A stretch of 41,798 nucleotides of DNA, taken from a virus. Lineage: Duplodnaviria; Heunggongvirae; Uroviricota; Caudoviricetes. Below, piece by piece: positions 1-16,137 of this stretch. The translations under genes and the position numbers were made by a program. The first letter of the stretch is position 1. Every line of letters starts with the position of its first letter. Location: IMG/VR virus record IMGVR_UViG_2563366805_000010, positions 1 through 41,798 of that record; one strand, given 5' to 3'. The notes under the pieces are model-generated. The model ran no database searches. It saw only the letters and a program-made list of their open reading frames with translations, and was not told where the DNA came from.

Positions 1-1194
1 ATGATCACCGACACAAAGCTCAGGAAGGCGCTCGGCAAGAAAAGAGATGATATCGAGATTATTTCTGATTCGCACGGGCTCAACGCCAGAATCAGCCAGG
101 CCGGAAAAATATCATTTTTCTATCGGTATCGCTGGGCCGGTAAAGCGGTAAAACTCAATGTTGGTGATTATCCTGCAATGAGTATCACCCAGGCAAGAGA
201 GCGTCGCCAACAATTCAGAAACTGGTTAACTGAGGGACTGGATCCGCGAGAGCAGGTGAAGCTGGATAAGCAGACCCGACAGGAAGCGATGTCCGTTGCC
301 GAAGCGTTCAATTACTGGATTGAAAGGCACTGTATCGCTAACGGGCTAGTTAAAGTCGATTACTATCGCCAGGTGTTTGAGAAACATATCGCCGAACCGA
401 TGAAGAATGTCAAAGTCGATAACACAGCGAAAATGCACTGGATCAACGTCTTCGATTCTATAGAAAGCAGGGTGATGGCTCATTACATGCTTTCGCTGTG
501 CAAACGGGCGTTTAGGTTCTGCGTTAACAGAAGTGTGATCGCCTCAAACCCACTCGAGGGATTACTGCCATCTGATGTCGGGCAAAAGCCTAAAAAGAGA
601 ACTCGCAGGATGGACGATGACGATCTGCGCAAAATCTATCAGTGGTTGAAAAGCCATATGTCGATAGAGTCCGTTTTCCTGGTGAAATTTATTATGCTTA
701 CCGGATGCCGTACGGCTGAGATTCGACTTAGTGAGAGATCATGGTTTCGATTGGATGATAATGAGTGGGTCGTGCCTGCGGGCAGTTATAAAACTCGGGT
801 ACATATTAGAAGGGGACTCTCAGACGCCGCCGTTAACCTGGTCAGAAATCACCTCAAGAAAATAAACACCAATCACCTGGTGACTTCACAACGTAAAATT
901 GATGGCGGGATCAAAGATTCGCCCGTTCATTCACCTGTGGCATCCAATTACGCCCGTTCTATTTGGAATGGAACAGGTATGGCAGAGTGGTCGCTTCATG
1001 ATATGAGGCGGACGATAGCCACAAATCTCTCTGAGTTAGGTTGCCCGCCGCACGTAATTGAAAAGCTGCTCGGGCATCAGATGGTGGGGGTTATGGCGCA
1101 TTACAACCTTCATGACTATATCGATGATCAGAAACACTGGCTCCGCGTTTGGCAGAGCCATCTTGAAGAGATCATCGGAGAGCCCTTCAGTTAA
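1..1194 (+). CDS. int: Tyrosine recombinase / phage integrase (P4-type)
   Basis: 397-aa ORF starting at window position 1; N-terminus [10 protein letters not shown]...YRYRWAGK typical of P4-family integrases; C-terminal catalytic region with HDMRRT and GHQ...AHYNLHDY motifs (R-H-R-Y signature). Confidence 0.9.
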
Positions 1195-1433
1195 TTTATC
1201 TTCTTTTTATCCTCCCACTCTTTGATTGACTCAGAGCGCCAGCGGTTAGGGTTGCCGGGCCAGTCAGGGGGTGGGAACGGGCATACGAAGCCCCGAGGCA
1301 TTGTGTCTGCACTTTGCCATGACCAAAGGGTTTTGCGTGAAATTTTGTAGCGACTGGTCAGGTCTGACGTTACCAAAATATCATCCATAGCTCTCTCCAG
1401 TTGCCCGTTCGGGCCATTCAAAATCTTTTTCAA
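1191..1433 (-). CDS. AlpA/excisionase-like small DNA-binding protein
   Basis: 80-aa ORF convergent with int, overlapping its stop; C-terminal [10 protein letters not shown] resembles the AlpA/Xis motif; an internal Met (MDDIL) may be the true start. Confidence 0.7.
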
Positions 1434-1675
1434 CCAACCTGCCCGGGCAGGGAGCGGAGACGGCGCATGCCGGTCATCGCTGTGGCCACGTAGCTCGCCT
1501 TTCGGTTCACCACCTCCACCCAGACTTTCACGCCTTCAACCTTCACCGTATAAGTCTCTTTCATCTTGCTTCGCCCATAGTCGCCATATGTTTGCAAGTG
1601 AGCTGCCAGCGCAACATCGCAAGCGCGGCGACCAATAGGTGATTGCTTACTGCGATTAATCAGCTTCATCATCAC
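1430..1675 (-). CDS. Hypothetical protein (81 aa)
   Basis: ORF overlaps upstream and downstream genes by 4 nt, consistent with translational coupling in the leftward operon; no recognisable motif. Confidence 0.45.
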   Translation of the reverse strand: MMMKLINRSKQSPIGRRACDVALAAHLQTYGDYGRSKMKETYTVKVEGVKVWVEVVNRKASYVATAMTGMRRLRSLPGQVG

Positions 1676-2544
1676 TGCACTCCCAAAGTGGCTACGACAT
1701 CACTCGCTGTTTCGCGGGTACTGCCTTTGCTGGATATAGCCCGGCGAGCACTGACGCGGTGCAGCGTGAAGCCGTGCTGTTCGTAAAGTTCAATTACGCG
1801 AGGAGCGGTAGAATTGCTGATCACCACTTTTGCCCCCCGCTGGTGGGCTGCCACACAGCTTTCCGTAAGTTCTACCTGGCTATCCCATGAGAACCCACCA
1901 GCCGCGTAGTTAGTGAAACCAGCGGTGCCGGGCAGCGGTTCATAAGGCGGATCGCAGTAAACGACGTCACCATCACCTGCCAGCGCGATCGTGCGCCTGA
2001 AGCCTGCATTCATGAATACGCATGCGTGAGCCTTCCGCTTAAATGCCCTGATCTCTTCTTCCGGGAAATATGGCGCTTTATATTTCCCAAAGCCGACGTT
2101 AAAAAAACCGTCCAGGTTATAACGGATCAGCCCGTTGAAGCAGTGCCGGTTGAGGTAAAGGAGCGCTGCTGCGCGCTCAACCGCATCCAGCCGCTGCGCG
2201 TTGAATGCTTCACGAATTACCGTGTAGTTTTCGGCATCATTCAGATGCCTGAATGCCTTCATTGCCTCATAGATCACCGAGTCGGGGACCACCGCCAGCA
2301 TCTGATACAGGTTAATCAGGTCAGCGTTGACGTCAGCCAGAAGAAAGCGTTCGTGCTTGTCTGAGTTAAGGAACACCGAGCCGCCACCCACAAAAGGCTC
2401 AATAAGGCGTTTACCTGCGGGGATCAAACGATCCAGTTCCGGCAGCAGCGAATATTTGCCTCCAGCCCATTTAAGGAACGGGCGCTGCCAAGTGCGCGGC
2501 TCTGTTTCCGTCTCTTGGCGCGATATCTCCGCACAATAACTCAT
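1672..2544 (-). CDS. dam: DNA adenine methyltransferase, Dam family (GATC-type N6-adenine MTase)
   Basis: 290 aa; motif I FLKWAGGK and catalytic motif IV DPPY (VVYCDPPYEPL); no adjacent restriction endonuclease, so an orphan MTase. Confidence 0.9.
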   Translation of the reverse strand: MSYCAEISRQETETEPRTWQRPFLKWAGGKYSLLPELDRLIPAGKRLIEPFVGGGSVFLNSDKHERFLLADVNADLINLYQMLAVVPDSVIYEAMKAFRHLNDAENYTVIREAFNAQRLDAVERAAALLYLNRHCFNGLIRYNLDGFFNVGFGKYKAPYFPEEEIRAFKRKAHACVFMNAGFRRTIALAGDGDVVYCDPPYEPLPGTAGFTNYAAGGFSWDSQVELTESCVAAHQRGAKVVISNSTAPRVIELYEQHGFTLHRVSARRAISSKGSTRETASDVVATLGVQ

Positions 2545-2699
2545 GCAGCCACCTGCTTTTCGTTAAGTTCTTCTGCCAGTCGTTGCGCCTTCAGTGGGTT
2601 GGTAACGACATCATCCCACGGTAGCAACCACCCGTTTTTCTCTTTGAGCCAGGGAAGGCGCACCGCGCCAACCCTGATTTCGTCCTGTGTGTGCGTCAT
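2541..2699 (-). CDS. Small hypothetical protein (52 aa)
   Basis: Not in the ORF track (under 60 aa); ATG overlaps the upstream stop as ATGA and its stop overlaps the dam start as ATGA. Confidence 0.3.
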   Translation of the reverse strand: MTHTQDEIRVGAVRLPWLKEKNGWLLPWDDVVTNPLKAQRLAEELNEKQVAA

Positions 2700-3427
2700 A
2701 ACGCATAGATAGAGTGAGAAGGGAATGGAAGACCGATCGGCGCAAACGGGATATCGTCGTCAAAGTCTACCGGTGGCTGACCGCTGTTCTGCTGCAAGCG
2801 AGACTGTGGTGCGCCTCCAGTCTGATTTGCATAAGGGTTACCGCCATGTTGGGCATTGCGCGGACCAGAGAACTGCGTGCCGCCGTGGATACGTTCGTCC
2901 TTATCCTTCATCGACAGTTCAAGCGCGGCGATCGCTTCTGCCGGGGCATTTTCAGCGTGCTCGGCGTAGGTTTTACGCGTTCCCGGCTGGAAAACGTGGC
3001 GCACTTCGAACTTGTAGCCGTCACCGCCGTCGTTTTTGGTGTACAGCACTTTCTGGAGGAACAGGCCCACCTTTTTGCCAACCAGTGCCGGGCAGTGCCA
3101 TTCGATGCCGTTTTGACCCTGTACCTGTTGCGGTTGCGCCTGTTTGACCTGGGCGACCCACATCAGCGCTGACACCAGCCCCATGCCGAAAGTCTGCTGG
3201 CCGTCTTTGCCGAGGAAGTTAATGCGCAAGTAATTTGCTTTTGCCCCGTTCGAGTCCAGGCTGAGTTCGAGCGCCTGGGATTGGCTGCCATCTTTCCCGA
3301 AGGTGTACACCGCAGAAACGATTTCGCCCTCGTAAGCGCCGGTTTCGCTGATCCCGCCTGTTGCGCCAGCTTTCTTCGCCATCTCAGCCGTTTCGTTGTT
3401 CCACATAAAAGTCATTGGTTGGTTCAT
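2696..3427 (-). CDS. SSB-like ssDNA-binding protein (Sak4-associated)
   Basis: 243 aa immediately downstream of Sak4; contains the SSB acidic tail motif DFDDDIPF followed by 15 more residues; Gly/Gln-rich linker before it; OB-like segment IEWHCPALVGKKVGLF. Confidence 0.55.
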   Translation of the reverse strand: MNQPMTFMWNNETAEMAKKAGATGGISETGAYEGEIVSAVYTFGKDGSQSQALELSLDSNGAKANYLRINFLGKDGQQTFGMGLVSALMWVAQVKQAQPQQVQGQNGIEWHCPALVGKKVGLFLQKVLYTKNDGGDGYKFEVRHVFQPGTRKTYAEHAENAPAEAIAALELSMKDKDERIHGGTQFSGPRNAQHGGNPYANQTGGAPQSRLQQNSGQPPVDFDDDIPFAPIGLPFPSHSIYAL

Positions 3428-3443
3428 CGTTAAATCCTCAAAG

Positions 3444-4115
3444 TTACAATTCGGTCATAAATTCGGTGATAGCCACGTCTACGGCGTGGAGGTCGTTGTC
3501 CATTTCCGTCTGGTCCGGGAACAGGTCGGGCGGCGCTTTGGCGGTGTCGTTGTCATCGCCTTTGATGAGAAAAACGTGTTTACCGTCCTTCTTGATGGCG
3601 CGCAGCACGATGGAGAAATAGCCCTCTGGAGTCAGCTTTTCGTTGAGCATCTTCCCGGTGGTCTTCATGCGGATCTTTCCCTCGGTCTCTTCGGTGTGAG
3701 CCAGGAAATAAACGCGGAAGTCGTCCGGCAGCTCGGTGGCCGCCATGATGATTCGCCAGATGTGATCTGCCATTTCGGTGAATTTGGCATAGCCGGTCTG
3801 GTACGCGCGGTTCATGTTCTCGTGCTGCATGACCACCTGGAAATCGTCGATGATCAGGACGCGGCGCGTTTTCGACTGCACCATGCGATAGATGGTGTCC
3901 AGCACCGTTTCCCAGTTATCCGAGCGCAGAACGTTACCGCGCTGTTTGCTTCCGTCTGGCAGCAGCTTGCCGTGAAGTTTCCAGCCCGCAGACTTGAACG
4001 GCAGCATTTTGGGAATGCACTGGAGCAGCATCACATCGTCCGGATTGAAGTTGCGCAGGCTGTAGGACTTGCCCGCGCCAGAGTCACCTAGGATCAGCAC
4101 TGGAGTACCCATCAT
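3444..4115 (-). CDS. Sak4-like RecA-fold recombination ATPase
   Basis: 223 aa; Walker A GDSGAGKS near N-terminus, Walker B VLIIDD; position next to exonuclease and SSB-like genes. Confidence 0.8.
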   Translation of the reverse strand: MMGTPVLILGDSGAGKSYSLRNFNPDDVMLLQCIPKMLPFKSAGWKLHGKLLPDGSKQRGNVLRSDNWETVLDTIYRMVQSKTRRVLIIDDFQVVMQHENMNRAYQTGYAKFTEMADHIWRIIMAATELPDDFRVYFLAHTEETEGKIRMKTTGKMLNEKLTPEGYFSIVLRAIKKDGKHVFLIKGDDNDTAKAPPDLFPDQTEMDNDLHAVDVAITEFMTEL

Positions 4116-4783
4116 TTACCCCCGTTCAGCCAGTGTTCAGCCGTAAACAGCACGTCTTCGTCTTCGCTGTTGGCAACGAGCCAGCGCAGGTAACCCGGTT
4201 CTGTTTTTGCCAGCTCTGCGAACGAGACGCCTTTATGCTTACCGAAGCGGAGCGCATGCAGCAGGGAAGGGTTATTGGAGATGGCGCGCATTTCGCCCAT
4301 CGTCCATTTCGCCAGGCGGCCCATATAGAGCAGCAATTCGGCGGTGACGTAGCAGTCATACAGCGCTCGGTGAGCGTAAAGCCCTTCAGGTACTTCCGGT
4401 TTCAGTCCGAGGCTGTAACGCAGGTACTGGTTGCTGTGGCTCTTGTGATCCGGCAGGAGCGAACGCGCCAGCTTAGCGGTACAGATCCACGGGGCGTTCA
4501 TTGCAGGAAGTTTGGCTTTATCGAACTTCGCGTTGTGGGCGACGTAGGCATCTGCCCCCAGATAGCGGCCAATTACTTCACTGAGCAGCGGCGCGCCTTC
4601 CACCATGTCTTCGGTGATATGGTGAATAGCCATGGCCTCAAAACCGATCGCCACGCCTGGCTTAACGAGGTCGCTCATTGGATTGCAGATCACCCCGTCG
4701 ACGATATCGACGCTGGCAATTTCCACCACGGTTTCCGGACCGCCTTCCAGCCCAGTCGTTTCGGTATCAATGACACGCAGCAT
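4112..4783 (-). CDS. DEDDh 3'-5' exonuclease (DnaQ/ExoX-like)
   Basis: Exo I motif VIDTETTG, Exo II HNAKFD, Exo III HRALYDCYVTAEL; start placed at internal ATG 4783 preceded by AGGGGA SD (track ORF extends to 4852). Confidence 0.8.
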   Translation of the reverse strand: MLRVIDTETTGLEGGPETVVEIASVDIVDGVICNPMSDLVKPGVAIGFEAMAIHHITEDMVEGAPLLSEVIGRYLGADAYVAHNAKFDKAKLPAMNAPWICTAKLARSLLPDHKSHSNQYLRYSLGLKPEVPEGLYAHRALYDCYVTAELLLYMGRLAKWTMGEMRAISNNPSLLHALRFGKHKGVSFAELAKTEPGYLRWLVANSEDEDVLFTAEHWLNGGK

Positions 4784-5013: not shown

Positions 5014-5604
5014 TTAATTATCGAAGAAAAAAACTATTCGAATATTTTCAGGGATAATATTTTTCTCTAACCACCATAATTCCAGAGCTCTGCTCTCCAG
5101 CGATTCATGAATATTTTTTAAAGCATCTACCGTATCTTCCCATTCCCGGAAAACAAAGCCTGGCATGCTTGTCCACCCACACCATGAATCGGGTTTAATA
5201 CCCTTATCAAGATCTGCCGCTTGTTTTTCTGAAATCATTCCTTTGAATGGCATTGGAGTAAGGTTGGTTCTGAACTCCCGAATTTCGGCAAGACTGACGT
5301 AACTGTGAGAATGTCCATCACACCCCCATTCTTCTGATACCTGCTTGGTGTAATCACAAGCATCGTCAGGTATACCGCGTGGTTCGGATATCTTAGGCGT
5401 TTCGTCAGCGTATGCTCTTACTCCGCAGAGTTGGGAGAATGCTGCATAATTACGAGAACTCTCTAAATCAATACGTTCAAATTCCCGTTCGCCATCGTCA
5501 TTTCCATACCATAGGTTTTTACGGAAATGATCATAATTAACCCATTTTTCTTCACCGTTAATTGAGCGTTTAACCTCAACCATCATATGAATATCGCAGC
5601 CCAT
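5014..5604 (-). CDS. Hypothetical Cys/His-rich protein (196 aa) in AT-rich cassette
   Basis: ATG preceded by AAGGA SD; segments GCDIH, CDY, GCDGHSHSY, WCGW suggest metal binding; visibly lower GC than flanking genes; no family recognised. Confidence 0.6.
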   Translation of the reverse strand: MGCDIHMMVEVKRSINGEEKWVNYDHFRKNLWYGNDDGEREFERIDLESSRNYAAFSQLCGVRAYADETPKISEPRGIPDDACDYTKQVSEEWGCDGHSHSYVSLAEIREFRTNLTPMPFKGMISEKQAADLDKGIKPDSWCGWTSMPGFVFREWEDTVDALKNIHESLESRALELWWLEKNIIPENIRIVFFFDN

Positions 5605-5643: not shown

Positions 5644-5916
5644 TTAAACTTGAGATTCACCGCAGAACGGGCAGAAACTCATTTTTACGTTGGTTTCTAG
5701 GCGGTTCAGGTTTTTAGCCATTTCGCCGTTTTTCTTTTTGGCCCGGTACGCCAGTTTGTATTTCAGCATCATAAACAGTTTGCCTTCGGAAAGAGAAAGA
5801 ACCTGATTATCCCAACCGGTATCAAAAGTGCTTTCGCTTACTTCAGCACCTTCCGGAACCTTCTCTTTCAGTCGCGCTTCGATATGAGCACCGACCTCAT
5901 TAATGCAGTTGCACAT
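5644..5916 (-). CDS. Hypothetical protein (90 aa) with terminal Cys pairs (possible zinc ribbon)
   Basis: ATG preceded by GAGGG SD; N-terminal CNC and C-terminal CPFCG; same AT-rich block as the 196-aa gene. Confidence 0.55.
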   Translation of the reverse strand: MCNCINEVGAHIEARLKEKVPEGAEVSESTFDTGWDNQVLSLSEGKLFMMLKYKLAYRAKKKNGEMAKNLNRLETNVKMSFCPFCGESQV

Positions 5917-6490: not shown

Positions 6491-6554
6491 ACAATAGCTA
6501 AAGCGATTATTTGAGTCAATCGCTTAAACGATAATTTATTTAGCTAAAGCGATA
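6491..6554 (-). promoter_or_regulatory. Leftward early promoter PL with operator cluster OL
   Basis: On minus strand TTGACT-17 nt-TATTGT; overlapped and flanked by three sites with ATCGC half-sites (atagctaaagcgatt, atcgcttaaacgat, ttagctaaagcgat) matching the OR operators. Confidence 0.5.
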
Positions 6555-6652
6555 ATTTTATGATTTATAAGATTATTTATTTGATTGGGAAATGTGCGAT
6601 GAAATGATATTAGCGAAGGAATTGGGGGAATTTTAATCAGGTCAGGAACAAT

Positions 6653-6673: not shown

Positions 6674-7366
6674 TTATGCGAAGCGCTTGTACTCTATTGA
6701 TTGTCTTAGTAGCACTTTAGCCATTACGTAGAACTGATCTTCGTCTTCTGACTCAACATACCATTTCTCGTAGATAGGGTTGTCTGAGATGACAGCAAGC
6801 CGATCTCTTTGCATCTGAAGTCTTTTGACGTGCAGAGTTTTTCCGAACACAAATACGTAAACGCCATCACCATCAAAATGAGTCACGCCAGTATCAACAA
6901 AAATTTGATCTCCTGGTGAGATGGTTCCATCCATGCTGTCGCCGTTAACAGTGATAACTTTTACATTATCTGCGGGGCGGTTTCCGAAAAGTGCGCGAGC
7001 CTGTTCAGTTGTGTATTCGATTGCTCTTATGGTTTCGATAAAATCACTGGTAACTAGCGAGCCAGGACCGGCGCTGGCCTTAACGTCAAGCACATCCACG
7101 CGGTAAACCTCATTCATAACTGGTTTAATTTGGCATAGCGTGTTTGCTTCGCGAATGCCAGATTCCAACATCTCACCTTGCCCCGTTGAAAGCCATTCAG
7201 GACGCACACCCAGAACAGATGCGATCTCTACTGTTTTTCGTGAGCCGTTCGCACCTTTAAGTAACTTATTTACGCTGGACTGAGCCATGCCTACATCTTT
7301 CGCCAGCCTAGCCTGCGTGTATCCAGCGACGTCCATTGCGTGCCCTAAGCGTTCTGAGAATCCCAT
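6674..7366 (-). CDS. cI: CI-type phage repressor (HTH + S24 LexA-like peptidase domain)
   Basis: 230 aa; N-terminal HTH (TQARLAKDVGMAQSSVNKL); C-terminal autocleavage domain with GDSM serine and KRL lysine; AAGAGG SD; divergent from cro. Confidence 0.9.
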   Translation of the reverse strand: MGFSERLGHAMDVAGYTQARLAKDVGMAQSSVNKLLKGANGSRKTVEIASVLGVRPEWLSTGQGEMLESGIREANTLCQIKPVMNEVYRVDVLDVKASAGPGSLVTSDFIETIRAIEYTTEQARALFGNRPADNVKVITVNGDSMDGTISPGDQIFVDTGVTHFDGDGVYVFVFGKTLHVKRLQMQRDRLAVISDNPIYEKWYVESEDEDQFYVMAKVLLRQSIEYKRFA

Positions 7367-7393: not shown

Positions 7394-7467
7394 ATAGTAT
7401 CGCCAAGGCGATTGTTTGGCAAAGAATCGCATAGGCGATTGACAATCGCTAAAGTGATATACATAAT
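7394..7467. promoter_or_regulatory. OR region: divergent PRM and PR with three palindromic operators
   Basis: PR TTGACA (7439-7444)-17 nt-CATAAT rightward; PRM on minus strand TTGCCA-17 nt-TACTAT leftward; operators ATCGCCAAGGCGAT (7399-7412), ATCGCATAGGCGAT (7426-7439), ATCGCTAAAGTGAT (7445-7458). Confidence 0.6.
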
Positions 7468-7494
7468 CGCTTTAAACTGATAGCTGAGGTGATT

Positions 7495-8093: not shown

Positions 8094-8349
8094 ATGAACC
8101 ATATCGAATTCATCGAAAAGCATGTGCGTGAAGAACTGCTGAAGCTCGGTTTCTCTCTGGGTGTGGCTCAGGGGGGGGGCGTTCCAGGCTATCGACATGT
8201 ACAAGCGCATGAGCCAGGCAAGCAGAAAGGGGAAGATTTTTGATGATGTTTTACGGCACGCAAAACTGTGGGCGGAGAAGCAGCAGTTACCCGCTGACCG
8301 CTTTGAGAAGCGAAAAGTTAAACGGAACGCCCAGCCGGGCCTGTTCTGA
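8094..8349 (+). pseudogene. Hypothetical gene split by a G9 homopolymer frameshift
   Basis: ATG 8094 opens a 49-aa frame that passes through nine G at 8171-8179 and stops at 8241-8243; the +1 frame continues to 8349; loss of one G gives a continuous ~84-aa ORF. Confidence 0.4.
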
Positions 8350-11153: not shown

Positions 11154-11665
11154 CCAACAAAACCAAAGAACTCGTAGCTGCCGGGCATGCGTTGGCTTCG
11201 GAACTGAAAGCAGAATGTGGTGCCGTTGATATGCGCAGTGTGGCAAAGCTGATCAGCGATTTGGCAACGCAACTGGAAGTGCAATTGGTGCGTGCTAATG
11301 CGCTGGCAGCGGAGAATGCGGGGCTGAAGGCTGGAATACTGCATGCCTCAGAAGATATGGAAGCACACCATGATGACTATGCCCTATTCAGCTATGACGC
11401 TGACGGCGAGCAAATGGACGCGCTATTACGGCTTTGTGATGCTCAGGATTCAATAGCATCGTTGGAGAATGCCAAAACACCAGCCACCGATGTTTTCCTG
11501 GCTGAAGTACGGGCGCAGGGCGTGGAGATGTTTGAACAGTGGTGTAGAGGTGAGCGCGATTTTACTCTCATTGATGAGGATGTTGCTGATGCAGCGGCTT
11601 ATGAAGAATGCGTAAAAAGAGCGGAATATTTCGCCGCCCAGCTTCGCAAAGGAGGCAACCAGTGA
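11150..11665 (+). CDS. Hypothetical protein (171 aa)
   Basis: ATGA-coupled to upstream gene; acidic, Ala-rich; no motif recognised. Confidence 0.55.
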   Translation: MTNKTKELVAAGHALASELKAECGAVDMRSVAKLISDLATQLEVQLVRANALAAENAGLKAGILHASEDMEAHHDDYALFSYDADGEQMDALLRLCDAQDSIASLENAKTPATDVFLAEVRAQGVEMFEQWCRGERDFTLIDEDVADAAAYEECVKRAEYFAAQLRKGGNQ

Positions 11666-12291
11666 GCAAGATTGACTATCAGGCACTGCGTGAGGCGGCA
11701 GAGCGTGCAATTCCGGCAATGGAACGCCTGTTAATGTTGCCAGTTGATGATGCTCTGATAAGCGAACAGGAACTTAAAGATAGCGGTGTTGATATTGATG
11801 CCCTCAACGCCTTCAAATTTCTGGCCGGACCAGAAACCGTGCTGGCACTACTGGATGAACGGGAAAGAAACCAGCAATACATCAAATCACGCGACCAGGA
11901 GAACGAGGATATTGCTCTTACGGTAGGGAAGCTGCGTGTTGAGCTTGAAGCAGCAAAATCAAAACTCAACGAGCAGCGTGAATATTACGAGGGAGTAATC
12001 GCGGATGGAAGTAAGCGCATTGCAGAACTGGAAGCACGGGAAATAAAACCAGCCAAAGGTGAAGTTCTTGTCGTTGTTTCTGGTTTTACTGGTTGCGGAA
12101 AAAGCGCCATTGCCGGGGAAATAGAAATCGCGATGAAGGCTATTGGTGTACCGGTTCAGTGGACTAATGGCGATGCGGAAAAGCGCATGACAGGAGCTGA
12201 CTGGCTGACAGCGATTGAGATGTACAAACCAACAGTGCGCATCGTGGAAGTTAATGTGCCACGCGCCGCTGGCATCGGTAAGGGGGAGTGA
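11662..12291 (+). CDS. Hypothetical coiled-coil protein with C-terminal P-loop-like motif
   Basis: GTG start overlapping upstream stop (GTGA) with GGAGG SD; coiled-coil centre; GFTGCGKS matches a Walker A pattern but the domain is short. Confidence 0.5.
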   Translation: MSKIDYQALREAAERAIPAMERLLMLPVDDALISEQELKDSGVDIDALNAFKFLAGPETVLALLDERERNQQYIKSRDQENEDIALTVGKLRVELEAAKSKLNEQREYYEGVIADGSKRIAELEAREIKPAKGEVLVVVSGFTGCGKSAIAGEIEIAMKAIGVPVQWTNGDAEKRMTGADWLTAIEMYKPTVRIVEVNVPRAAGIGKGE

Positions 12292-12725: not shown

Positions 12726-13595
12726 ATGAGCACTATTACCAAAGAACGTATTGAATTGTTCATTAAAAATCCGCTTGAAAACGGGCTTACCCGTGGTGAA
12801 CAAATGGAACTGGCACGGATTGCGCTGGCATCGCTCGAAGCGGAGGCTGTGGCGTATATGCATCACAGCGGGCAGGTTGTGACGCGGGAAGAGTGCTGTG
12901 ACGACAAGATATTCGCCATTTGCTGTAAAGTCGAAACTCCCCTCTACGCAGCACCACAGTTACCGCAGCCAGTGGTGGCAATAACTCAGCATTTCGACAC
13001 AATCGCACTTGATACGGCAAAGATGGTTATGTGCGATGTGAATCGCCGCGATGAGTTTTTTGGCGGTGATATCCAGTTGCTATCCCGCATTCAATGCCGC
13101 ATTGACGAAGCCTGCCGCGCAGCCATGCTTCAGGGTAGCCAACCTGTAAGTAAGCGCGAACAGGTTCGCCGTGAACACGCTGAATGGTCAGATAAGACTT
13201 TCGGCGATGTTGGTCCCGTTGGCCCGCTTAAACACCTGTCGAAAGAGGCGCTGGAAGCTGCCGCAGAACCTGACGACCTCAGCGAGTGGGCTGACATGCA
13301 GTTCCTGTTATGGGACGCCCAGCGGCGCGCCGGTATCAGTGACGGTGAAATCACAGCTGCGATGGAAGAAAAGCTGAAAGTGAACATGGCGCGCCAGTGG
13401 CCGGAGCCGAAGGACGGAGAGCCGCGCCAGCATCTTAAGCCAGCGCCGCAGACAGTGCCTGATTCTGTGATCAGCGCAGCAGTAAATGGAATTATGGCAA
13501 CTTATGCCGACAATGCGGAAGATTGCCGGGAAATGGTACGCACACATGTTGAACAAGCCTGTCGTGCCGCTATTCAGGAGTCCGGTCATGGCTAA
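12726..13595 (+). CDS. MazG-like NTP pyrophosphohydrolase domain protein (DUF550-like)
   Basis: C-terminal FGDVGPVGPLKHLSKEALEAAAEPDDLSEWADMQFLLWDAQRRAGISD has the MazG EExxE...D pattern; N-terminal ~130 aa unassigned. Confidence 0.6.
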   Translation: MSTITKERIELFIKNPLENGLTRGEQMELARIALASLEAEAVAYMHHSGQVVTREECCDDKIFAICCKVETPLYAAPQLPQPVVAITQHFDTIALDTAKMVMCDVNRRDEFFGGDIQLLSRIQCRIDEACRAAMLQGSQPVSKREQVRREHAEWSDKTFGDVGPVGPLKHLSKEALEAAAEPDDLSEWADMQFLLWDAQRRAGISDGEITAAMEEKLKVNMARQWPEPKDGEPRQHLKPAPQTVPDSVISAAVNGIMATYADNAEDCREMVRTHVEQACRAAIQESGHG

Positions 13596-16062: not shown

Positions 16063-16137
16063 GGGTCAGAAGCACAGAGGTTGTGAGATCGGCTGTTAAC
16101 CGATTGGTCGAAGGTTCGAATCCTTCCTGTCCCGCCA
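16063..16137 (+). tRNA. tRNA-Asn (anticodon GTT)-like gene
   Basis: Hand-folded cloverleaf: acceptor GGGTCAG/CTGTCCC (one T-T mismatch), D-stem 3 of 4 pairs with GG in loop, anticodon stem ATCGG/CCGAT with loop CTGTTAA, 5-nt variable loop, T-arm GAAGG-TTCGAAT-CCTTC, discriminator G and encoded CCA. Confidence 0.5.

Follow-up and report, generated by a model that had tools for sequence, protein, structure and literature searches.

The dam gene of the DNA analysed here, a 41,798-nucleotide stretch of a tailed-phage genome that we call the window, is an intact Dam-type DNA adenine methyltransferase gene of a phi80-like Escherichia coli prophage. Its product would be a functional stand-alone alpha-class N6-adenine DNA methyltransferase of the Dam family. 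At a probability of roughly three in four, we favour a joint reading in which this is an orphan GATC methylase, derived by deletion from a gene resembling dmt of phage P1, made from a pL-type operon after induction and methylating the phage genome fully before packaging.

The gene itself is already known, being annotated in public databases, and for that reason must be considered ordinary. Its product is identical in sequence to RefSeq WP_016243541.1 (‘DNA adenine methylase’, E. coli TOK-001), and the same exact protein occurs, as ‘Dam family site-specific DNA-(adenine-N6)-methyltransferase’, on 212 public contigs. Descriptions of orphan Dam methyltransferases in enterobacterial phages, both temperate and virulent (P1, phi80, VT-2, T-even phages, HP1), go back decades and, with the exact protein already named in RefSeq, the window gene matters little as a discovery.

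Family assignment and conservation

The first-pass annotation had placed a Dam-family methyltransferase at 1672-2544, and both profile and structure matches bear this out. The open reading frame runs from an ATG at 2544-2542 to a TGA at 1674-1672 (Table 1). Its translation matches, over the full length and above the curated cutoffs, Pfam PF02086 (D12 N6-adenine methyltransferase; E 1.8e-57, profile positions 1-253 of 253, 195 bits against a cutoff of 22) and the ‘dam’ subfamily TIGR00571 of NCBIfam (265 bits against a cutoff of 114.85). Matches to structure chains comprise E. coli Dam (2G1P/4GBE, E 2e-67) and DpnM (2DPM, 3.2e-48). The FLKWAGGK and DPPY motifs that had been picked out earlier are indeed present, at residues 23-30 and 198-201, and the succession of motif I (49-58), recognition hairpin (133-156) and DPPY (198-201) is that of the alpha class. 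DPPY is invariant in 119-120 of 120 close homologues. Purifying selection on the gene is shown by dN/dS values of 0.07-0.13 over the Dam domain, measured against phi80, SEN34 and 118970_sal3.

The protein scores below the cutoff of NF008152, the equivalog model for housekeeping Dam (271 against 441 bits). This score, together with the prophage location beside a phi80-type integrase, rules out a housekeeping chromosomal Dam ortholog. Chromosomal Dam of E. coli (EcoDam; 2G1P, 4GBE) has the same fold family and motif order as the window protein and, like it, is an orphan enzyme, but the window protein lacks the C-terminal tail of EcoDam, carries the substitutions Y119F, P134G and R137K (EcoDam numbering), and comes from a prophage pL operon instead of the housekeeping dam locus. 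Dam of phage T4 (PDB 1YFJ, 1Q0S) is likewise a phage orphan GATC m6A methylase from the same Pfam family; its identity to the window protein, however, is about 30% with partial coverage (residues 25-244), and it comes from a virulent phage with modified DNA.

Table 1. Coordinates of the dam gene, its motifs and the surrounding features of the window.
Feature	Position	Strand	Basis and remarks
phi80-type tyrosine integrase	1..1194	plus	98.9-99.9% identical to phi80 int region
Terminator-like hairpin, leftward operon end	1138..1160	minus	scan; inside int 3' end
Excisionase	1191..1433	minus	phrog_1553 E 1.4e-33; phi80 xis annotation; true start probably 1388
DUF4060 (79 aa), downstream gene	1430..1669	minus	Pfam PF13269 E 1.3e-37; 2 nt after dam stop
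dam CDS (290 aa)	1672..2544 incl. stop codon	minus	ORF list; intact ortholog of phi80 damL
Catalytic motif IV DPPY, residues 198-201	1942..1953	minus	read from sequence
DNA-recognition beta-hairpin region RHCFNGLIRYNLDGFFNVGFGKYK, residues 133-156	2077..2148	minus	alignment
T7 homopolymer of coding strand (A7 on plus strand)	2101..2107	minus	encodes G-F-F; site of the +1 frameshift (T8) in phi80
AdoMet-binding motif I EPFVGGGSVF, residues 49-58	2371..2400	minus	aligned with EcoDam EPFVGAGSVF
FLKWAGGK motif, residues 23-30	2455..2478	minus	pairwise alignment with EcoDam
N-terminal leader MSYCAEISRQETETEPRTWQRP, residues 1-22	2479..2544	minus	DNA alignment with phi80; starts of relatives
DUF1317 (52 aa), upstream gene	2541..2699	minus	Pfam PF07026 E 3.9e-17
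Recombination module upstream of dam	2696..4783	minus	PHROGs phrog_743, phrog_2872, phrog_192; Pfam
SSB-like protein	2696-3427	minus	PHROGs
Sak4-like annealing ATPase	3444-4115	minus	PHROGs; Pfam AAA_22/AAA_24
ExoX-type DEDDh exonuclease	4112-4783	minus	PHROGs; Pfam RNase_T + ExoX-like_C
Candidate pL promoter TTGACT-17-TATTGT (6519-6491) with three oL operator-like repeats	6491..6558	minus	promoter scan
CI-type (XRE/LexA-like) repressor	6674..7366	minus	ORF list; RefSeq ‘XRE family transcriptional regulator’ in identical TOK-001 segment

Predicted sequence specificity

By homology at 46-52% identity, the enzyme most likely methylates GATC. It is 46% identical to EcoDam in pairwise alignment, and the equivalents of EcoDam K9, N120, L122, R124, Y138, R249 and DPPY are all kept. 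K25 of the window protein aligns with EcoDam K9, a residue in contact with a phosphate and with the first base pair (PMC4417163). Within the set of residues that contact GATC in EcoDam (K9/Y119/N120/L122/R124/P134/Y138), the lysine, asparagine, leucine, arginine and Y138 are retained whereas Y119F and P134G differ, the latter change putting a glycine in place of the proline that contacts the third base pair. The hairpin also carries R137K.

These three departures from EcoDam, all in the recognition hairpin, raise the question of whether specificity has been altered or relaxed, such that adenine would be methylated in a motif other or broader than GATC and the phage would gain wider anti-restriction cover. 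A very relaxed phage enzyme does exist in the adenine methylase of Serratia phage OS31 (PMC7556043). However, Y119F, P134G and R137K are found in 110-114 of 120 close homologues and also in P1 Dmt, whose Dam domain carries a GATC-specific annotation, while the equivalents of K9, N120, L122 and R124 are invariant across the clade and the window protein passes the Dam-subfamily cutoff. We consider a changed specificity decidedly improbable.

Absence of a restriction partner

The window gene has no cognate restriction endonuclease nearby and is thus an orphan methyltransferase, in agreement with the first-pass annotation, which had seen no endonuclease in the vicinity. Among PADLOC models the best for the protein is ‘oMTase’ (orphan methyltransferase; E 1.3e-92). 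Its neighbours within 3 kb are an excisionase, DUF4060 and DUF1317 proteins, an SSB-like protein, a Sak4-like annealing ATPase and an ExoX-type DEDDh exonuclease. No PADLOC restriction-endonuclease model was matched by any of the 75 six-frame ORFs of at least 120 aa in the whole window, as judged from the 25 listed of the 26 matched families, the 26th having an E-value above 8.8e-5. Pfam searches of the variable ORFs of the nin region likewise revealed no restriction endonuclease, the sole nuclease domain there being RusA. The same holds for 80 related viral loci, where no restriction-endonuclease family occurs among same-strand ORFs up to three genes to each side; the neighbour families found are YqaJ exonuclease, RecT, Gam, Sak4, SSB, DUF1317, DUF4060, xis and int.

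Dam-family enzymes can nevertheless be components of restriction-modification systems. One such is M.DpnIIA (DpnM, PDB 2DPM), which is GATC-specific and belongs to the Dam family like the window protein (E 3.2e-48). Methylases of the DpnII/MboI type are paired with a GATC restriction endonuclease, whereas the PADLOC, Pfam and PHROGs neighbour checks gave no adjacent GATC-specific endonuclease gene of the kind that such a type II system would have. That the window gene is the modification half of a restriction-modification system is hardly credible, with a restriction endonuclease found neither among the scanned ORFs of the window nor among the same-strand neighbours in the related loci, and we give as little credence to a second possibility, namely packaging control of the P1 kind, in which a Dam-methylated pac with clustered GATC sites licenses terminase cleavage. 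P1 packaging does depend on GATC methylation of pac. In contrast to P1, however, the window has no GATC cluster: the largest groupings, three sites in 100 bp and four in 200 bp, are reached in 0.74 to 1.0 of simulations and so do not exceed random placement, which speaks against control through a clustered pac.

Overall, GATC is not depleted in the window, with 162 sites observed and 161.8 expected from base composition. Its Markov observed/expected ratio, 0.72, is in the usual range of the other 4-bp palindromes.

Origin from a bifunctional methyltransferase

The clade to which the window gene belongs descends from fusions of C5-cytosine and Dam domains resembling P1 Dmt, from which the cytosine domain has repeatedly been deleted. 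The fusion is present in close relatives of 722-856 aa. P1 Dmt (AAQ14041) itself is a protein of 754 aa with an N-terminal C5-cytosine methyltransferase domain, whereas the window protein consists of PF02086, the sole domain detected, and a 22-residue remnant leader, with no C5-cytosine domain (PF00145) fused to it. Over the whole Dam domain the two are about 50-52% identical. They also share the F, G and K variants of the hairpin, and both are phage-borne without a nuclease partner. The P1 domain is annotated as methylating GATC.

Aligned at the DNA level, the leader of the window protein reads as what remains, in scrambled form, of a P1-Dmt-like C5-cytosine methyltransferase domain, namely of its start and linker. 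Relatives of the window gene begin MRYGSVCSG(IEAAS...), retaining the start of P1 Dmt (...YGSVCSGIEAAS). With respect to phi80, a 7-nt and a 5-nt deletion fall within the leader at 2479..2544, and through these two small deletions the N-terminal 22 residues of the phi80 and window proteins differ. A mosaic boundary with phi80 lies near 2497, at the 5' end of dam, where the megablast match to phi80 stops. The window gene would then have arisen from a P1-Dmt-like bifunctional methyltransferase gene by deletion that left Dam only, and the repeated reduction of such enzymes to Dam-only forms tells which activity these phages keep.

The phi80 ortholog and the T run

The closest named relative for comparison is damL of phi80/Lula (PHI80_34, GenBank JX871397), the ortholog of the window gene. 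The DNA of phi80 and the window is 98.9% identical from int through most of dam, the two share the gene order int, xis, DUF4060, dam, and the proteins are 93% identical after frame repair. Upstream of dam the phages differ, phi80 having an exo/RecT/gam module and the window ExoX/Sak4/SSB. The phi80-type integrase points to the attachment site of phi80 between kch and yciI, and in the near-identical TOK-001 segment the gene does lie between kch and yciI. The window as a whole is not the TOK-001 prophage, however: the first 11.2 kb or so are identical (2 SNPs), after which the two diverge, with 96.7% identity over 85% of the length of 11000-35900. The TOK-001 annotation was therefore not relied on for the distal part.

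At 2101-2107 the window has seven T residues where phi80 has eight. Because of this change from T7 to T8, the phi80 copy is annotated as a frameshifted pseudogene, whereas the window copy is intact. To see how the two forms are distributed, 5,426 complete E. coli genomes were searched with two queries of 60/61 nt. T7 was found in 16 genomes carrying the gene, all of them wild isolates, and T8 in 59 which, among the matches listed, are all phi80-derived laboratory strains (DH5alpha, DH10B, TOP10 and JM83, for example). Every one of the 31 viral loci with the T-run sequence context of the window also has T7. Phase variation at the run, as in a phasevarion, was considered and discarded, T7 being present in 16/16 wild genomes and 31/31 viral loci and T8 in the phi80 lineage only.

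The state of the phi80 copy, the loss of the C5-cytosine domain and a leader that is frame-scrambled relative to phi80 might together suggest that the window gene too has lost its function, as what is left of a bifunctional Dmt-like gene that is turning into a pseudogene. We find this very improbable. The catalytic and AdoMet-binding motifs are all intact, and the low dN/dS over the Dam domain (0.07-0.13) runs counter to decay. Moreover, T8 is confined to the phi80 lineage, being seen only in laboratory strains among the genomes listed, and Dam-only forms have arisen several times and persist on hundreds of contigs. The window copy is rather an intact natural allele of phi80 damL, and therefore the right copy for asking what the phi80-type Dam does. 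The 2010 Lula paper contains nothing on dam; a second-hand remark has it that deletion of damL changed the BamHI pattern of phi80 DNA (PMC13449921).

Operon context and expression

The first-pass annotation had also assigned the gene to an early operon, leaving the strand unstated. Sequence organisation supports this assignment and suggests a repressor-controlled, leftward operon of the pL type on the minus strand. The operon would run from the pL-like promoter through small ORFs, ExoX-Sak4-SSB and DUF1317 to dam, DUF4060 and xis. Three operator-like repeats at 6495-6558 overlap the candidate pL, and the repeat family to which they belong (D1/D2) is common to oL and to the oR region at 7396-7474; the CI-type repressor gene is followed in the scan by a terminator-like hairpin at 6675-6656. 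From the pL-like promoter it is about 4 kb to dam, and the genes between overlap or are closely spaced. Intergenic distances in the leftward operon range from -17 to +73 nt, and ATGA start/stop overlaps flank dam, the TGA of DUF1317 overlapping the dam ATG by 4 nt (ATGA). A Shine-Dalgarno-like AGGTGG stands 4 nt upstream of that ATG. On the downstream side, a DUF4060-like cluster provides the first gene in 68 of 79 related loci. For the hairpin at 1138..1160, the phi80 annotation has a coincident ‘putative leftward transcription terminator’.

A gene so placed, downstream of operator repeats and a pL-like promoter, is probably expressed on induction or infection and not in the quiescent lysogen, a timing read from gene order only. 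The consensus scan gave no match to a minus-strand promoter between 6491 and dam, although a weak or non-sigma-70 internal promoter could escape it, so that the scan is weak negative evidence against a promoter of dam's own for lysogenic expression. Since the position predicts expression upon induction only, a methylation test in an uninduced, dam-negative lysogen could give a false negative.

One further hit of the scan, an intragenic ‘terminator’ formed by a hairpin at 2125-2108 and the T7 run, is treated as chance because such hits number 9 in total against a shuffle expectation of 8.7.

Biological role

Dam genes are known in phages P1, VT-2, T-even and HP1, and their role is ‘still not well understood’ (PMC7556043). 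For a phage whose host is Dam-positive, a second GATC methylase brings no obvious selective benefit. We infer that the role is full GATC methylation of replicating phage DNA, to the benefit of the phage. The phage Dam may supplement a host Dam that has become limiting, so that the phage genome, in rapid replication and recombination and with its 162 GATC sites in the window, would be fully methylated before packaging. Such DNA would be refractory to methylation-sensitive GATC endonucleases, both DpnII/MboI-type enzymes and MutH, which acts on un- or hemimethylated GATC. To our knowledge, restriction of the DpnII/MboI type is uncommon in enterobacteria.

Protection at GATC was one of two functions that the first-pass annotation put forward for phage Dam enzymes in general, a statement that applies here only in part, and it stands as a reasonable putative role. 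The other, altered host gene regulation in lysogens, is not favoured, because dam lies deep in a repressor-controlled operon, has no match to a sigma-70-like promoter of its own and resides in a host that has Dam. As a regulator of lysogenic conversion, the prophage enzyme would change host expression or prophage stability through GATC methylation. When Dam is overproduced, mismatch repair and methylation-sensitive promoters are known to be affected. Stable lysogeny of phage 933W needs host Dam, and a screen for gene expression in lysogen cultures yielded a dam clone of the Stx phage Phi24B (PMC3342100). The latter signal is, however, explicable by spontaneously induced cells, which are always present in such cultures, and a prophage Dam homologue in E. 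coli ST131 shows low-level transcription and is predicted to be inactive in the lysogen (PMC4659465). Given also that almost every GATC site is already methylated by the E. coli host, and that the gene sits about 4 kb inside its operon with no own promoter match, we regard a regulatory role in the lysogen as improbable.

The company that dam keeps brings up the question of whether the enzyme is instead a helper of recombination. Rapid and full GATC methylation would stop MutH from cutting the mismatched heteroduplexes made by Sak4- or RecT-type proteins, and would thereby promote the homeologous recombination that generates mosaics. In the window dam lies downstream of the ExoX-Sak4-SSB module, in phi80 and SEN34 it immediately follows exo-RecT(-Gam), and in phage 118970_sal3 it adjoins a Holliday-junction resolvase; upstream neighbours in the 80 related loci are mostly YqaJ exonuclease/RecT or Sak4/SSB. 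Even so, we judge a recombination role to be unlikely. Somewhat more doubtful still is its stronger form, in which dam would be retained beside whatever recombination module is present as an anti-mismatch-repair factor, blinding MutH and licensing the homeologous recombination from which lambdoid mosaics arise. If this were true, the repeated C5-cytosine loss would show that only the Dam activity is selected in these temperate phages. The interval between xis and exo is, however, the usual accessory-gene slot of lambdoid phages, and the type of module changes, with the mosaic boundary near 2497, while dam stays linked to DUF4060-xis-int. This switching of modules against a constant dam-DUF4060-xis-int block therefore points to a linkage that is positional rather than functional.

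A Dam-family methyltransferase of predicted GATC specificity

The first-pass annotation had placed a Dam-family methyltransferase with FLKWAGGK and DPPY motifs at 1672-2544, an assignment upheld by the open reading frame (see Table) and by Pfam, NCBIfam, PHROGs and structural matches. The D12-class N6-adenine DNA methyltransferase family (PF02086) covers the protein end to end with an E-value of 1.8e-57, and the NCBIfam model 'Dam family site-specific DNA-(adenine-N6)-methyltransferase' (TIGR00571) is passed with 265 bits (cutoff 114.85). Against NF008152, the equivalog model of the housekeeping Dam of E. coli, the score is 271 bits, below the cutoff of 441. PHROGs assigns the protein to 'DNA methyltransferase' families, and among solved structures it matches E. 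coli Dam best (E 2e-67), then DpnM (3e-48) and T4 Dam (3e-17). An identical RefSeq entry exists (WP_016243541.1, 'DNA adenine methylase'), 212 public contigs carry the exact sequence under Dam-family names, and homologues occur in around 1,125 phage records. For the Dam domain, dN/dS is 0.13 in the comparison with phi80, 0.08 with Salmonella phage SEN34 and 0.07 with phage 118970_sal3; the gene is selectively maintained. Plus-strand ORFs overlapping it, such as 2026-2364, are unsupported; purifying selection acts on the minus-strand frame.

Features of the dam gene, its surroundings and the immunity region
Feature	Position	Strand	Details
dam CDS	1672-2544	minus	290 aa; one long ORF; ATG at 2544, TGA 1674-1672
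FLKWAGGK motif	residues 23-30 of the protein		
DPPY motif	residues 198-201 of the protein		
dam downstream neighbours			DUF4060, excisionase
dam upstream neighbours			DUF1317, SSB-like (phrog_743), Sak4-like single-strand annealing ATPase (phrog_2872), ExoX-type DEDDh exonuclease
Recombination module	2696-4783	minus	Sak4 (RecA-like annealing ATPase), cognate SSB-like protein, ExoX-type DEDDh 3'-5' exonuclease
Operator-like repeats (putative oL)	6495-6558		three; overlap pL-like site
pL-like promoter site	6519-6491	minus	TTGACT-17-TATTGT; promoter scan
CI-type repressor gene	6674-7366	minus	
oR region repeats	7396-7474		match those at oL; strong rightward promoter TTGACA-17-CATAAT there
cro-like and cII genes		plus	

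In E. coli Dam, R124 contacts the fourth base pair of the target and L122 and P134 the third; GATC recognition also needs Y119, which intercalates, N120, and K9 and Y138 at the first base pair, while R249 makes an extra minor-groove contact observed in a non-cognate complex (PMC4417163). The window protein conserves DPPY and the equivalents of K9, N120, L122, R124, Y138 and R249. It differs at Y119 (F), P134 (G) and R137 (K), but the same three residues are found in 110-114 of the 120 nearest homologues in the databases and in the Dam domain of P1 Dmt, the bifunctional enzyme of phage P1, whose GenBank record states that this domain methylates adenine in GATC. The conserved contacts, together with substitutions common to P1 Dmt and close homologues, make the predicted GATC specificity well supported, with a probability of roughly 85-90%. 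On sequence grounds the protein belongs to, and would work like, the orphan GATC adenine methyltransferases of the Dam family. The phi80 gene damL is its orthologue, and the P1 Dmt Dam domain and E. coli Dam are paralogue-level relatives; it is not a housekeeping Dam equivalog, a restriction-modification component, bifunctional or phase-variable. Such a gene is nothing unexpected for a lambdoid prophage.

Orphan status

That no endonuclease lies nearby, as first proposed, is confirmed by neighbour annotation and by three wider comparisons. For the protein itself, PADLOC ranks 'orphan methyltransferase' best, above 'Type II methyltransferase'. When every six-frame ORF of 120 aa or more in the whole window (75 in total) was scanned with PADLOC, 26 families were matched; the 25 listed stem only from Dam, the ExoX-like exonuclease and Sak4, with no restriction-endonuclease model among them. 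The nin-region ORFs that differ from E. coli strain TOK-001, which carries a near-identical prophage segment (NZ_AP018395.1), contain only DUF4406, Ead/Ea22, dATP/dGTP pyrophosphohydrolase, NinB and RusA domains. Finally, three same-strand genes either side of dam were surveyed in 80 related IMG/VR loci and clustered into 79 families. The 48 representatives scanned, taking in all of around 55 aa or longer, matched YqaJ-type exonuclease, RecT, Gam, RNase_T/ExoX, AAA (Sak4), DUF1317, DUF4060, excisionase, integrase, RusA and regulators, and none was a restriction enzyme. The dam lineage is genuinely solitary. In the survey set, one viral locus also encodes a DndB-like protein (DNA sulfur-modification-associated) within three genes of dam, and another has a nicotinate phosphoribosyltransferase.

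Origin of the gene and its surroundings

Many close relatives carry a C5-cytosine methylase domain (PF00145) ahead of PF02086. In the 80 viral loci, the proteins that carry the Dam domain (77-100% identity) are of three kinds: a bifunctional full-length kind of 722-856 aa, P1-Dmt-like with an N-terminal PF00145 half and beginning MRYGSVCSGIEAAS... just as P1 Dmt begins (the 856-aa forms being at loci L012, L015-L017, L020, L021 and L027); an intermediate kind of 537-662 aa; and Dam-only forms of 290-301 aa, at least six of them distinct (short forms at L013, L041 and L053). The last retain just the first few cytosine-methylase codons, joined to the inter-domain linker: MRYGSVCSG runs into AAAMPIEEP in phi80, and MRYGSVCSGI into GGRIAAVLP in Salmonella prophages. 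A further such form is that of the window, MSYCAEISRQETETEPRTWQRP, its leader (2479-2544) scrambled relative to phi80 by deletions of 7 and 5 nt, with the frame regained ahead of the Dam domain. Both the range of relatives and the leader remnant indicate that the gene derives from a P1-Dmt-like one and kept only Dam; the sequences suggest that the cytosine-methylase half was deleted repeatedly and independently.

The first 2.5 kb of the window is 98.9% identical to the int-xis-damL region of phi80, but this similarity breaks off around 2497, at the dam 5' end. Upstream, the window has an ExoX/Sak4/SSB module rather than the lambda Exo/Bet or RecET kind, exo/RecT(/gam), present there in phi80 and SEN34. 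By this comparison a mosaic junction is placed here, with dam staying on the DUF4060-xis-int side. The first 11.2 kb matches the TOK-001 prophage, located between kch and yciI in the phi80 attachment region, save for two SNPs (5803 and 5884). From 11197, in the nin region, the two diverge into related but non-identical mosaics (96.7% identity over 11000-35900, with 85% of the length aligned). The TOK-001 annotation lists its Ead/Ea22-like and dATP/dGTP pyrophosphohydrolase genes as partial pseudogenes; their window counterparts (11608-12291 and 12726-13595) have full Pfam domain matches. The longest mononucleotide run in the window, a G9 tract at 8171-8179 in a short ORF just past the cII-like gene, is a possible slippage site. 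A tRNA-Asn (GTT) gene lies upstream of the lysis genes (16063-16137); phage P1 likewise has a tRNA-Asn, within a few hundred bases of dmt on its downstream side.

The frameshift in phi80

GenBank annotates phi80 damL as a pseudogene with a homopolymer frameshift, and alignment shows the sole difference responsible to be T8 in phi80 against T7 at window positions 2101-2107. The gene is found in 75 complete E. coli genomes, in its T7 form in 16 and its T8 form in 59. All 16 T7 genomes come from natural isolates (human, cattle, frog, food and water sources), whereas the T8 genomes listed all belong to laboratory strains known to carry phi80 material (DH5alpha, DH10B, TOP10, JM83, XL10-Gold and others); T7 is also found in 31/31 IMG/VR loci with the same sequence context. 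This distribution rules out a phase-variation switch and indicates a single event in the laboratory phi80 lineage. Common cloning strains thus contain a dead copy of this methylase. A short hairpin flagged as terminator-like, CCGT...ACGG (2108-2125, minus strand), directly precedes the T7 run; although exactly at the slippage-prone tract, it is probably due to chance, since such hits in the region are as numerous as in shuffled sequence.

Predicted expression from the early operon

With its repressor gene and cro-like/cII genes on opposite strands, the window has the lambdoid immunity layout. Repeats of the form ATCGCnnnnGCGAT / TAGCTAAAGCGAT, found three times in the putative oL and three or more times in oR, overlap the pL-like and pR-like promoters and define the prophage immunity region. 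From the pL-like site to xis run thirteen minus-strand genes, separated by -17 to +73 nt. The start codon of dam overlaps the stop of DUF1317 (ATGA) and is preceded by a Shine-Dalgarno-like AGGTGG, and DUF4060 starts 2 nt past the dam stop. The promoter scan found no other minus-strand promoter between the pL-like site and dam, and terminator-like matches there are at chance level (9 observed, 8.7 expected). A hairpin at 1160-1138 occupies the position of the leftward terminator annotated in phi80. Operator repeats, pL-like site, tight spacing and the phi80-matched terminator all agree with the early-operon placement originally suggested, and this gene order implies that dam would be repressed in a lysogen. 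Two further ORFs of the operon, both minus-strand, are without Pfam matches: 5014-5604 (196 aa, phrog_10141) and 5644-5916 (90 aa with CxxC...CxxC, phrog_7033).

Likely function

According to one paper, what phage Dam enzymes do 'is still not well understood' (PMC7556043). GATC occurs 162 times in the window, against 161.8 expected from base composition (Markov observed/expected 0.72, like other 4-bp palindromes), and is not clustered beyond random, which argues against a methylation-controlled pac site of the P1 type. General Dam biology suggests as the most economical mechanism that, on induction or infection, Dam would be made from pL and supplement limiting host Dam, so that fast-replicating, recombining phage DNA becomes fully methylated. 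It would thereby be shielded from methylation-sensitive GATC nucleases, namely restriction enzymes of the DpnII/MboI type met in a new host, and MutH, whose targets are un- or hemimethylated DNA. A role against mismatch repair, tied to the recombination functions of the phage, seems improbable.

The first-pass annotation also raised altered host gene regulation in lysogens. For one Stx phage, dam has been detected in cultures of lysogens (PMC3342100), but such cultures contain spontaneously induced cells. The position of dam in the operon, a host that is already Dam-positive and the Dam homologue of an ST131 prophage, whose transcription is low and whose predicted state in the lysogen is inactive (PMC4659465), make a regulatory role less likely here.
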